NCBI GenBank assembly: GCA_964016885.1 | Contig: OZ024757.1 | Coordinates: forward strand, 40,052,001-40,116,000 | Direction of reading: 5' to 3' | Source: Eledone cirrhosa | Taxonomy: Eukaryota | DNA length: 64,000 nt | Shown here: positions 1,723-60,987 of the stretch, in pieces | Position numbering within the stretch: position 1 is the first letter of the stretch | Layout of the letters: each line of letters opens with the position of its first letter | The notes under the pieces: model-generated | The model's database searches: none | What the model was told of the DNA's origin: nothing | Seen by the model: only the letters and a program-made list of their open reading frames with translations | Translations under genes and position numbers: made by a program

Positions 1723-1806
1723 TTATATATATATATATACATATATATATATATAAAATAAAATAAAATAAATAAGTCAAATATTTACAATTTGGCTTCG
1801 TTTATT

Positions 1807-1861
1807 ACTGCTATATATATTTCGTTGACAGCCATCTTTGGCTGTGACCTCTTCAGGCAGT
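1807..1861 (-). ncRNA. Minimal type I hammerhead ribozyme, intact core
   Basis: Minus strand reads actgc-CTGAAGA-ggtcacagcca aaga tggctgtcaac-GAAA-tatata-TA-gcagt: 5-bp stem I, stem II, palindromic stem III, AUA cleavage triplet. Confidence 0.85.
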
Positions 1862-2089
1862 CCGAATTAGTGTGGTATAGACGAGTACACATGTTGTTGA
1901 GGTGTTTAACTCTGTCAATACTGCGATATGTCCAGTTCCTGGTTAGGTTGTTATTATCCGAGGAAGGAACTGGTATCATATCCAGTTGCTCAGAGGAATA
2001 ACAACCTAACCAGGAAATGGACATATCGCATATTGACAGAGTTAAGCACCTCAACAACAGGTGTACTCGTCTATACCACACTAATTCGG

Positions 2090-2146
2090 ACTGCCTGAAG
2101 AGGTCACAGCCAAAGGTGGCTGTCACCTAAATATATATATAGCAGT
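2090..2146 (+). ncRNA. Hammerhead copy with GAAA>TAAA core mutation (likely inactive)
   Basis: actgc-CTGAAGA-ggtcacagcca aagg tggctgtcacc-TAAA-tatatata-TA-gcagt; mirror copy of 1807-1861. Confidence 0.65.
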
Positions 2147-3199
2147 AATAAACGAAGCCAAATTGTAAATATTTGACTTATTTATTTTATTTTACATTAC
2201 TCCGGAGTAACGAAACAAACCTGCGCACTTCGTCGAGTGCTCCAAGCTGCATACTCGGGTGTCGGTAAACAACCAATATATACTAAATATATATATATAT
2301 ATATATATGGATTGAAGGAGACGAGGCTGATGACCAGTGTTAGAAAGTAAGGCGACACAAAGAACAGTTAGAGAGTTTCCCTTCTTCAGTTGTCTACTAC
2401 GGGTCACGGACTTTTCAGCGCATTATAAACAATATATATATAGACACACACATACACCCATATATATATATACATATTTATATATATATATATATATATA
2501 TACATAGACACGCACGCGAATATATGTACTCACACATGTATTTATCAATATATACATACATATGTGTGTGTGGTGTGTGAATGTATCAACAAAGACGGTA
2601 CAGAACTTTACAAATCTCGGTTTCTGTGTATATAAAAAAAGTCAATACAACAATAACTAAAGATGAAACAAACAAAAAGTAATAACAACAATAACAAAGT
2701 GTTCTTTAACATTTCATCGCTTCCATTGTTAAACAAACTTGCACAATTATTTACCAAATAAATTTTAACGAAGGCTCTCGAATACATGAATTATATTTCT
2801 AATTTATAAATATACAATTTCTAAATTTATTAAAAATTACATTTATGGCAGAATCCTATACAGCTAATAACTAAATTGTATTTATAATAGCAATACTAGG
2901 TTCTTCAACTTTGGTTTCTATCAATACTCGTTTCTTCTAACGGAAACAACAAGAATTATATAACTGAAGCTATTGTCTTACCTTGGTAAGATGTTAGCGA
3001 AGAATATTCGATATTTTAAATAACGTCTACAATTTATAAATACCGAATATCATTGAATATATATTGACTACTTCAATCACAAACATTCTATTATATTTAA
3101 ATTTTATTTATTGCCATAATTGATGACAATGTATTAAGGGAACTCAAACAAAATACTCAACAATACTTAACAGCAACAACAAGAACGATAATAATTGTT

Positions 3200-3428
3200 T
3201 TAATAATTGTTTCTACTTTTGATAATTTGCTTTAGACTCAAAGCCAGTAATTTAGAGTGGAGGAGAAACCCGATTACATCAACCACAATGCGTTAGTGGT
3301 ACTTTATTTATCGACTCTGTGAGGATAAAAGAAAAAGATAACCTCGATTTAACCAATATTTGAACTCAGGACATAAAGGGCGGTAACCATACCACAAAAT
3401 ATGTGACCGTCGCTCTAGGGATACCGCT
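3200..3428 (-). mobile_element. tRNA-derived SINE, family 1 (Meta-domain-like core), diverged
   Basis: Matches the reverse complement of the window consensus gagttcaaatcccgccgaggttaactttgcctttcatccttacggggtcgataaaataaagtaccag. Confidence 0.7.
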
Positions 3429-57790: not shown

Positions 57791-59156
57791 AAATTATATT
57801 ATATATATATATATATATATATATATATATATATGGTCTATAATATATGGTACACACTCTTTCTCTCTCTATATCTATATATCTATATATATTATATATA
57901 CTTTTCATTTGATTTATTATGGCTCGAGATAAAGTCTATTAAGCTTGCTTATTGAGAAATCCACAATTCTATAATATATAATGTTTTGATTCATTGAGCA
58001 AATTGCGTTCTGTTTAGGTTTATGGATGTTAGTTAAAGTCAGTTCTAAACCAAAGGCTCACCAGGGCGGTGCTTATCCCAGGTCTCCTTGGCATTAAACA
58101 ACTGAGAGTACAAGACATCCACCTGGACAGGACACCATTCTATCGCAGGATTAACTTCCTAACTACTGCTGACAATCACTCATCTCAGCTAAGTACACTA
58201 CAGCTAAATGAAATAAAAAGTATTTCTCAAGAACACAAGCCGGCTTCTGAATCCACTAATGAGATATTTACTTGAGTTTATTTTTTCCAGATCACGTTCT
58301 GCCTTATGATGAGCTATATCCAATAAAAAGCATTGGTTGCCCCTGGCAGATCTGCTGGATGTAATGCTTGTATGTCATTTATATTTTCCCGACATCTTTA
58401 AATCAATTAACAAGTTAAAATGTTATCCTATAATTATATTTTTGGAATTATTTTGAATCTATGGCTGAAAAGAATCAAGGCTGAAAGAGGGTTAATATAT
58501 ATATATATATATATATATATATATATATATATATATAAAGTGGTTTTTGTATGTCAACGGAAGATGTTTTTTATGGTGCGAAATATTCGTTTTAGATATT
58601 ATAAACATGAGTACATGTATGTGAAGTTGTTTGAATGTGTGTCTGTATGAGAGTGTGTGTGTGTGTGAATATATGTGTATATCAGTGTACTTTCTGAATA
58701 TTTTATTTGAATTCCAAATTCCAACCTAAAAACGGTTTATATATGTGTGTGTGTGTGTGTGCTCGTGTCCCTGAGAAAGGCTTCACAAATATATATATAT
58801 ATATATATATATATATATATATATATATATATGTATATTTCTGTAGCAGATACAAACAAACCGTATATAGAAAAGATGAAATAACTAAAGAAATTTTTTG
58901 AAATTATATTTTCATCGTTGTTGATATTTGTTTTTAGGAGAGAGAGGGGCCATTTACAAAGAAAAAAAAGAAAAAGCCATTCCAATCGATATTTCTTCGT
59001 GGTTACATTAAACATCATATTCACTTTATATTTCATTCGCAGACACAGCCCTGTGTAGAATCAGTGATATTGGAGCCTATCATATCGGTAAGCCAATAAA
59101 TAAATAACTAAATATATATATATATATATGTATATATATATATTTGTATTATATAT

Positions 59157-59255
59157 GTATAAATGTATTATATTTTTTTTAGTTTTTCGTCCTATATATA
59201 TATATATATATATATAGGACGAAAAAGTAACAAAAATATAATAATACATTTTATA
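59157..59255. repeat. Inverted repeat centred on a (TA)12 tract
   Basis: aatgtatta...agtttttcgtcc-(TA)n-ggacgaaaaagt...taatacatt. Confidence 0.75.
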
Positions 59256-60780
59256 TCTCCTAGAAATAATCACAAAAATATATCAGCTTTCCTACACACT
59301 CTACAGTCCCTCTATCATGCAATAAACATCGGGTCATAAACATCAGACTTCTACATAAAAATGAGAGATGTGTGTCTTTAGATTATAATTTCGCTGGCAT
59401 AAAATGTATCCACACAGGAGAGTAATTGCATTTGTATTCCAATATATCTACCCCTCATTACACGCTCACACACACAGACACACACAGACATACACACACA
59501 CACATACACATATATATATACAAAAACACACATTCACACACATATATACAAAAACACACATTCACACACACACATATATATATATATATATGTATATATA
59601 TACATACAAACATTCTCACACACACATATACATATATATATATATAGGGGTGTGTTCGCATATATGTCTGGCCGTGTAAAAGTAGGTAATATTGCTTTAG
59701 AAATAACAATTTAGAACAAATAATAGAAGCCTTGTACACGTACACCTTGGAGACTAAATGATGAAAGTTCGACCACCACAACATAGTTACAAGTGAAATT
59801 TACAGAAATTCAATGTACATTGAGGTTATTATATATAAAGCCTTATACACAGGGCACAACATACCTTTGTCAGGCAGCAAGATTCTAAATAAGTTAGCTG
59901 ATAGAAACCGCCCCTTGTGATGGTTATAAAGATGGAAGGTTGCCTGGTAGGGTCATATCTCTAACCTCAACTCATTGCATAAAACCGTCCTTCAAGGCCC
60001 AGTCATCATACTATTTGTATATGTGTATACATATATTTGTATGTGTTGATGTATATGGTTAATTCTATAGTTACGTGTATGGATATCGTTTATTATATTA
60101 CAAATTATTATACATACATACAAATATCCAGATATACATACACATATGTAAAATATATGCACACGCACACATTCACTCGTATATATATATATATATATAT
60201 ATATATACAAACACAATACAGATACATAAATACACAAACAGACCGACAGATGCACCTATTTCTCTCTCTCTTTCTGTGTGTGTGTGTGTGTGTGTGTGTA
60301 TATATATATATGAATATATATATAAAAGAAGGGGAGCATGTCAGAGAGTGCAAATCATCGCATGTATAATCATCATCATCACCACCACCACCACCACCAC
60401 CACCCTCACCTTCCTCATCACAACCTTCTTCAGCATTGTTCTGTTAAAGCTTCTACGCATGGGTGATGTTTATCTCTCTGCCAAGGTCTGTATCGTTGTG
60501 ACAATATGAAGTAGCGCTATTTGGAAATGTCGGCCTAAGTAACGCATCGCAGATCTGCCAAACACAGTTTGCTGACTTTTCTTTCACCCTTTCACTCATA
60601 TTTGATGGACGAACAAATAATTGGGCAGCTTACCATGGAAATACACGCCACATACACACGTACAACCAATCATTCATATCTATGTATTCGCATATCTATC
60701 TATATTTGGGGAGGGTCATATTGTTATAATATTACCAGAAATAACAGAATATATATACACATCTATACATATATATAACT

Positions 60781-60825
60781 GTCGAAACGGCCGGAGCTCA
60801 GCCGTTGGGATCCTGATTCTTATCC
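60781..60825 (+). mobile_element. Family B terminus
   Basis: gtcGAAAcggccggagctcagccgTTgggatcctgattcttatcc, then (TA)n. Confidence 0.75.
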
Positions 60826-60844
60826 TATATATATATATATATAA

Positions 60845-60987
60845 GTAGGTCCACAACAGTTAGTGCACCATACCTAGAACAAATGTTTCACCTTATTCGG
60901 ATCCTCAAGTGATATAGGCCGAGCTGAGGATCTGAATAAGGTGAAACAGTTGTTCTCGGTATGGTGAACTAACCATTGCGGAACTAC
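60845..60987. mobile_element. Fold-back element, family D (63-bp arms, 17-nt spacer)
   Basis: 60845-60907 is the imperfect reverse complement of 60925-60987; starts right after a (TA)n tract. Confidence 0.85.
60918..60960 (+). ncRNA. Minimal type I hammerhead ribozyme (short stem II, U-U at its base)
   Basis: gccgag-CTGAGGA-t ct gaataa gg t-GAAA-cagttg-TT-ctcggt; 6-bp stem I, GUU triplet. Confidence 0.75.

Follow-up and report, generated by a model that had tools for sequence, protein, structure and literature searches.

Probable fold-back insertions of Hydra-type Penelope-like elements in Eledone cirrhosa, and a paired tail hairpin as a candidate start-site signal

Penelope-like elements (PLEs) of the Hydra clade, whose definition, with its reverse transcriptase (RT) and endonuclease motifs, is given in section 11 of Craig et al. 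(2021; PMC8557442), carry hammerhead ribozymes and target (TA)n; Hydra-1_Obim of Octopus bimaculoides is one such (TA)n-targeting family, and for one Hydra family the paper describes an inverted copy with hammerheads on both strands. In minimal hammerheads a palindromic stem III is established to suit folding as a dimer, and a U3-A8 variant of the core is known from Schistosoma PLEs (Cervera and De la Pena 2014, PMC4209133). For a Poseidon element, in vitro work describes two internal starts with the tail between them and shows that both target strands are extended; RNA lying downstream of these starts was required, a protein dimer was predicted, and the hammerhead was protein-assisted and unnecessary for insertion (Frangieh 2024, PMC11167929). 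Non-autonomous PLE derivatives are known as well, among them MRC1 (Craig et al., 2021, PMC8557442) and the non-coding, non-LTR retrozymes (Cervera and De la Pena 2020, PMC7229834; Li et al. 2026 preprint). Here we analyse 64 kb of the octopus Eledone cirrhosa (“the window”: contig OZ024757.1, 40,052,001 to 40,116,000), which holds hammerhead-bearing fold-backs beside TA tracts. These very probably arose when 5′-truncated 3′ ends of at least six PLE families inserted twice, head to head. Five of the families have coding parents that bear Hydra motifs and a sixth is likely non-autonomous; the two ends of the insertions likely come from two reverse-transcription starts set by hairpins.

The window has 32% GC, with 17 kb masked as short repeats and microsatellites, in a host genome of 3.0 Gb. 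At least six Penelope-like families contribute pieces to it, and we name them by window locus: A (6507), B (1759), C (57242), D (60845), E (55428), and F (32362). Five fold-backs had been proposed in an initial annotation made from the letters of the window, and all five are real: self-BLAST of the masked window recovers them as local inverted repeats at 1773-2180 (91%), 6519-6801 (89%), 32362-32464 (88%), 57245-57357 (90%), and 60844-60988 (81%). Their arms differ by 3-12%, end at different but family-fixed positions and recur at many loci. The element itself extends further than was first annotated, by a tail of 63-112 nt on one arm, and the fold-backs at 32362 and 57242 hold the GAAA half alone, their complete forms being located elsewhere in the genome. 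The window copies are probably dead remnants. At least 40 genome matches were scored for each of A-F, out of 457-2284 first-look candidates; the genome sample per family is the best 30 loci of each search, in which the window itself is included and a few loci enter once for each arm. Loci L001-L309 (1.26 Mb) contain roughly a dozen further hammerhead families, some with a U3-A8 core. Two small fold-backs in the window, 6078-6130 and 59171-59238, contain no hammerhead letters; the latter flanks a TA tract.

A strict type I descriptor matches four cores in the window (6713+, 6607-, 55485-, and 1856-), compared with a mean of 0.08 and a maximum of 2 in 100 block-wise dinucleotide shuffles, a count far above that of shuffled sequence. 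These four bear out most of the five hammerheads first called intact; in the fifth (60924+) the core is intact and stem I has 5 bp, but stem II is weak, with just 2 bp closed by U.U. This closure is present in most Hydra-clade hammerheads of File S2 of Craig et al. (PMC8557442). The further truncated or decayed motifs, put at about ten, number 11 (2095+, 25501+, 32355-, 32410-, 32416+, 48061+, 57290-, 57312+, ~57395+, 60778+, and 60908-). Motifs at 7146+, 17730-, 29605+, 36905+, and 47269- have no stem I or no GAAA and are not placed in families A-F; the 5′ cores among them (7146+, 17730-, 29605+, and 36905+, some with a short stem II and none with stem I) are perhaps older decayed families.

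Stem III is palindromic in families A, B, D, E, and F and thus suited to dimer folding. Complete copies of family C carry U3 and A8 in all nine distinct contexts, though the search pattern allowed C3 and G8, and in two of the nine G5 is changed too; the family also has a long insertion in helix III. In complete copies of F, stem II is enlarged by an insertion of ~100 nt. The core position that varies most in A, B, and F is position 7. Folding of monomers sometimes misses the hammerhead fold, no Rfam hammerhead family is found among the best 150 of 481 window matches, and at the gathering threshold Rfam gives no match for four octopus and eight metagenome loci. Self-cleavage is predicted to be weak or to need a dimer or protein help. 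Covariation of stems within single families, proposed as a test, was not shown: the D pattern gave no matches, and the C and E rows included false matches.

The window contains no PLE open reading frame (ORF), and the parents were found among longer genomic copies. Upstream of each A-E hammerhead lie an RT-like and then an endonuclease region, in mostly broken frames. For A, the endonuclease segment is upstream in five loci (L122-L126), with an RT segment in L122 and L125; for B, RT and endonuclease precede the hammerhead by 1.3-1.5 kb in L228 and L232, and L231 shows the tail continuing into an ORF start bearing RWK and DKT. Parents of C are L219 and L227, those of D the four loci L220-L223, and for E the hammerhead stands downstream of the ORF end in 13 of 15 loci chosen by that end, about 1 kb off in 12. 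Because RT and endonuclease precede the very hammerhead of each family and share its strand, the window copies are read as truncated ends of coding elements. The proposal of non-coding elements mobilised in trans thereby fails for A-E and fits family F alone, whereas the RT-plus-endonuclease parents that it had advised looking for do exist for A-E. The endonuclease regions of A, B, C, D, and a sibling family H are 32-51% identical, which makes these distinct families.

By their motifs, A-E match the Hydra clade. The CxCX5C linker is present in A, B (L232), C, D, and E, RWK in B (L231), RWR in sibling H/O, and DKT in B, C, and H; the sampled copies of A, D, and E end before the RWK/DKT region. 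YRDD is among the motifs of the coding parents, as in the Hydra definition, and an alignment inspected by eye shows CxxC and CxH around conserved E and N, with no CCHH, in the endonuclease ends of A, B, C, D, and H. The hammerhead sits in the 3′ repeat and insertion is into (TA)n. A sibling Hydra-type family has a natural 750-aa open frame (L218:2411-4660, minus strand) with hairpins 1 and 2 upstream and 10,919 relatives at E 0.001; its structure model (predicted local distance difference test score 78) best matches DRT2 and telomerase RTs (TERT). Of 31 homologs, four match RVT_1 and two GIY-YIG; among six that were looked up, the only one with a named source comes from the octopod Argonauta hians. 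A profile search gives weak RT matches, and phmmer against PDB sequences gives weak unrelated matches alone.

Two assignments were discarded. The RT segment of L124 is not family A: at 88% to L218 and ~56% to L122 it belongs to a sibling family, so that its copies (at least 150 scored matches at 78-100%, out of 36,255 candidates) do not describe A. An endonuclease that matched a pattern for family B belongs to another family, presumably Neptune/Nematis-like. A further hammerhead family lies 3′ of an endonuclease with a C-X2-C-type linker (L031:306-1800, L057, and L060), which we likewise take to be Neptune/Nematis-like, and the tail hairpin described below was found in none of its 21 copies.

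Element ends abut TA runs in 29/30 sampled loci of A, 28/30 of B, 23/25 of C, 26/30 of D, 28/30 of E, and 19/30 of F, compared with a background of 12-16%. It is this abutment that upholds the association with TA tracts; proximity within 60 bp, as first proposed, is a weak measure, since 42-49% of size-matched random intervals satisfy it. Every family has two 3′ ends, short and long, 63-112 nt apart, and the stretch between them is the tail. Fold-backs pair one long with one short end in 9/9 cases in A, 9/9 in B, 19/19 in C, 13/17 in D, 14/18 in E, and 6/16 in F. Copies of A, B, and E have ragged 5′ ends. The tail of every family opens with a bulged hairpin, RCTC-stem...TN-GAGY-RCT. In copies that stop before a hairpin, we searched an interval reaching from 18 nt ahead of the hairpin start to 10 nt past it. 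A TA run begins within this interval at hairpin 1 (A 31/34, B 14/19, C 40/44, D 12/23, E 77/86, and F 13/31) and likewise at a second hairpin (B 25/27, C 38/39, F 22/30, and O 17/18), mostly 1-14 nt upstream of either. Copies of B, C, F, O, and I that span a tandem junction show this second hairpin 78-99 nt after the first.

Across nine families the hairpin arms pair by Watson-Crick rules at 59 of 63 positions, a value reached by 48 of 362,880 permutations of the arms; the outer stem formed part of the selection, and two of the families were chosen on visual inspection. Because MAFFT did not align the arms, a script did the counting of pairs. In an independent set, 30 of 78 metagenomic relatives have the hairpin, with 36 flank matches in sense versus one in antisense (shuffles, 0.4), and 24 of the 78 have pairs of hairpins spaced 55-83 nt versus three antisense pairs. 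An anchor-only search of these relatives, in which inner pairing was not required, gave 66 sense versus five antisense matches: the first inner pair is Watson-Crick in 62 of the 66 (43 C-G and 19 T-A), a one-sided 2-nt bulge is fixed in 63, and the spacer varies in length. The motif is also visible by eye in the consensus files of Craig et al. (2021; PMC8557442) for Hydra-2_Amil, Hydra-2_Ajap, and Hydra-1_Ajap, and altered in Hydra-1_Crog; the main text of that paper does not mention a tail hairpin. The hairpins likely set the two points at which reverse transcription starts and from which the Penelope tail results.

Family F is different. A query with its 5′ part finds the family's own tail immediately upstream in 18 of 30 loci under a strict test and, on inspection by eye, in four more, of which three duplicate a single segment; the remaining eight are truncated or interrupted and share no alternative upstream sequence. 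The tail-only query has low power in this direction: 1 of 30 loci continues into the F 5′ part, and none into other shared sequence save duplicates. The period is ~580-605 nt. No ORF above 50 aa occurs in the two units tested, and blastx against 155 related proteins gave no match. Given these tail-to-5′ junctions, the ~600-nt period and the missing coding trace, F is probably a ~600-nt non-autonomous derivative. Endonuclease pieces near F copies (L253/L240, L263, and L278) were rejected as parents, being downstream or separated by other insertions. A repeat in L241, L275, and L226, with what we take to be Helitron-like ends, is inserted at or near the F junction and inside an E-like copy.

How might such insertions arise? 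In a mechanism towards which we lean slightly, elements of the Hydra clade, from corals to cephalopods, would use paired 5′-leader hairpins as rulers for their start sites. A transcript would cross the tandem junction, comprising the ORF, the 3′ untranslated region (UTR) with its hammerhead and then the 5′ leader of the following unit, which holds hairpins 1 and 2. The RT-endonuclease would bind this RNA, a protein dimer holding both hairpins; the self-complementary (TA)n target would be nicked on both strands, and each nick would prime a cDNA just upstream of one hairpin. The two cDNAs would stop early and join at their truncated ends to give a fold-back, with the tail as the stretch between the two start sites and the hammerhead probably dispensable for each insertion. 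Family F would be a 600-nt parasite keeping both hairpins and the hammerhead. That the hairpins serve as the downstream RNA signal, one per start, is suggested by analogy with the Poseidon element data.

Several observations weigh against this account. Inner pairs 2 and 3 are Watson-Crick in just 40 and 36 of the 66 anchor-only matches; the second hairpin was seen where B, C, F, O, and I copies span a tandem junction, not in such copies of A, D, or E, and those of B and of C are each known from one locus. Many D and F copies have other endpoints, with no TA run near hairpin 1 in 11 of 23 D and 18 of 31 F non-continuing copies, and the TA-run starts take in microhomology with the element's own end, so that end-to-hairpin distances are approximate. 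Arms within one fold-back are barely more alike than arms across loci, and a shared template is therefore not shown. The Hydra placement is by motifs, and Pfam finds no RT domain in the octopus ORFs (no significant match on 10 ORF pieces). The 3′ UTRs of A, B, and E, at 0.9-1.5 kb, are longer than the typical Hydra element of < 3 kb suggests, and in B the DKT motif lies 3.7 kb upstream of the hammerhead, beyond that length, which is a general and not a diagnostic trait.

The main rival concerns what the twin motif does. The ends could be those of Hydra-clade elements while the motif acts as DNA, for endonuclease docking or as an internal promoter, or is a mere mark of the 5′ leader, the tail arising when the endonuclease resolves an intermediate. 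We regard this as doubtful, though it deserves serious consideration: the outer letters of the motif are almost invariant, as in a protein-binding site, endonuclease resolution is how Craig et al. (2021; PMC8557442) explain the tail, and Frangieh 2024 (PMC11167929) cites work in which the Penelope tail is needed for endonuclease recognition of plasmid DNA. Set against it, the variable spacer, the compensating first inner pair (62/66) and the fixed one-sided bulge (63/66) suit a folded single strand better than duplex DNA.

Much less probable is that all families are non-coding, retrozyme-like ribozyme elements that spread as short RNA circles and are mobilised in trans. The window without a PLE ORF and the shortness of most copies would fit, as would F with its tail upstream of its own 5′ part in 18/30 loci, its ~580-605 nt period and its lack of coding trace. 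Yet A-E have coding parents, and their colinear, ORF-bearing copies refute the idea for these five; the ragged 5′ ends of A, B, and E copies are those expected from truncation; and no tandem array of complete hammerhead units occurs in the window or, judged by the best BLAST hits, among the 30 F loci, where none holds two or more complete units and partial tandems alone are seen. Retrozymes are marked by the absence of a protein-coding parent; A-E have such parents, and none was found for F. We give practically no weight to the view that the fold-backs are assembly artefacts or DNA transposons resembling miniature inverted-repeat transposable elements, with hammerheads by chance in AT-rich DNA. 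Simple repeats do mask 17 of 64 kb and monomers do not always reach the hammerhead fold, but arms 3-12% different with family-fixed unequal ends at many loci, a descriptor count far above the shuffles and colinearity with retroelement 3′ UTRs speak otherwise, and the parents together with the rule of one long and one short end refute it. The reading as double insertions of truncated PLE 3′ ends is the one we retain, with the DNA-level role of the motif as its main rival; the pieces on which it draws are listed below.

Table 1. Pieces of families A-F in the window
Feature	Position	Strand	Remarks
Family B left arm	1759..1981	-	Short end on TA tract 1724-1755; hammerhead 1807-1861, core intact, TATATA stem III; 92% to parent L228
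Family B right arm	1981..2285	+	Long end plus tail; decayed hammerhead without GAAA; hairpin 1 of the tail at 2199-2241
Family C tail alone	5360..5431	-	
Family A left arm with tail	6432..6644	-	Long end, hairpin partly deleted; hammerhead 6545-6615 intact; 96% to parent L122
Family A right arm	6643..6812	+	Short end into TA; hammerhead 6705-6775 intact, palindromic stem III
Family D fragment	25501..25548	+	GAAA half alone
Family C fragment	32305..32366	-	GAAA half, short end into TA
Family F left arm	32362..32407	-	GAAA half alone
Family F right arm	32408..32499	+	GAAA half alone; part of ~600-nt non-coding family
Family C, second subfamily	48045..48105	+	GAAA half
Family E solo 3′ end	55294..55535	-	Long end into TA; hammerhead 55428-55493 intact; tail hairpin 1 at 55356-55378
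Family C left arm with tail	57165..57301	-	Long end, GAAA half
Family C right arm	57302..57360	+	Short end, GAAA half; complete members have U3-A8 core
Family C, second subfamily	57374..57427	+	GAAA half
Family F tail alone	57874..57995	+	Hairpin 1 decayed
Family C, second subfamily	60773..60828	+	GAAA half
Family D left arm	60845..60908	-	Short end; truncation cuts 5′ core
Family D right arm	60912..61002	+	Hammerhead 60919-60960, core intact, stem II weak; 87% to parent L223

Other repeats share the window. An abundant dispersed repeat of ~170 nt, resembling a short interspersed nuclear element (SINE), lies at 19042-19208, with copies near 5018, 11526, 11758, 20257-21027, 28089, 34027, 36137, 36500, 46815, 51056, 51730, 53233, and 57630; several seeming long inverted repeats of the window are such copies in opposite orientation. 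A 55-bp unit is repeated in tandem 18 times at 38206-39221 (84% matches), and ARAGORN finds no tRNA in the window. Elsewhere in the genome, three identical copies ~140 kb apart (L303-L305 and L325-L327; C3, 74.3-74.6 Mb) represent a segmental repeat or an assembly duplication.

For the question of how tails and inverted copies form, the hairpin pair offers a compact, covarying candidate RNA signal for both starts that crosses phyla, and it provides a short diagnostic for Hydra elements and their non-autonomous derivatives. The paired tail hairpin is what is new; the clade, the hammerheads, (TA)n targeting and inverted 5′-truncated copies were already known. Neither the hairpin pair nor octopus families A-F were found in the literature searched; subscription papers and Fig. 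S1B/S2C of Frangieh 2024 could bear on this novelty. The elements are additional members of a known clade, not a new class, which tempers the suggestion that something undescribed had been met; at family level the suggestion holds, in that the A-F hammerheads differ from those of Hydra-1_Obim, the single catalogued Octopus Hydra family. The known clade is nonetheless extended, from the one Octopus Hydra family in Craig et al. (PMC8557442) to many in this genome, with large copy numbers.

Compared with described systems, the initial annotation was right about Penelope-type minimal type I hammerheads in several families, TA targeting and inverted 5′-truncated copies. The closest match is the Hydra clade (Hydra-1_Obim and Penelope-13_HM; PMC8557442), with its C-terminal GIY-YIG endonuclease, RWK, DKT, and CxCX5C, a hammerhead at the 3′ end, (TA)n insertion, an inverted 5′-truncated copy and a one-sided tail; the tails of A-F are 63-112 nt as against 30-40 there, and some 3′ UTRs are much longer. 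Metazoan PLE minimal type I hammerheads (PMC4209133) share a helix III that is short or palindromic, single motifs left by truncated copies, pairs on opposite strands separated by 100-700 bp and, for family C, the U3-A8 variant, but differ from F in its stem II extension of ~100 nt and from C in its long helix III insertion, both known here from sequence. Animal non-LTR retrozymes (PMC7229834; Li et al. 2026 preprint) and MRC1 are, like F, short and non-coding, with a type I hammerhead and head-to-tail junctions; F, unlike the non-LTR retrozymes, forms partial tandems and PLE-like fold-backs rather than arrays of complete units, with a unit of ~600 nt (PMC7229834). The Poseidon element PAc of Anolis (PMC11167929) has two internal starts with the tail between, an AT-rich target, extension of both strands and a need for downstream RNA, all of which would also apply to A-F. 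It belongs to another clade and starts inside its ORF, in an AC-rich stem-loop, and the text on PAc describes no conserved paired hairpin such as the one that opens the tails of the Hydra-type elements reported here.

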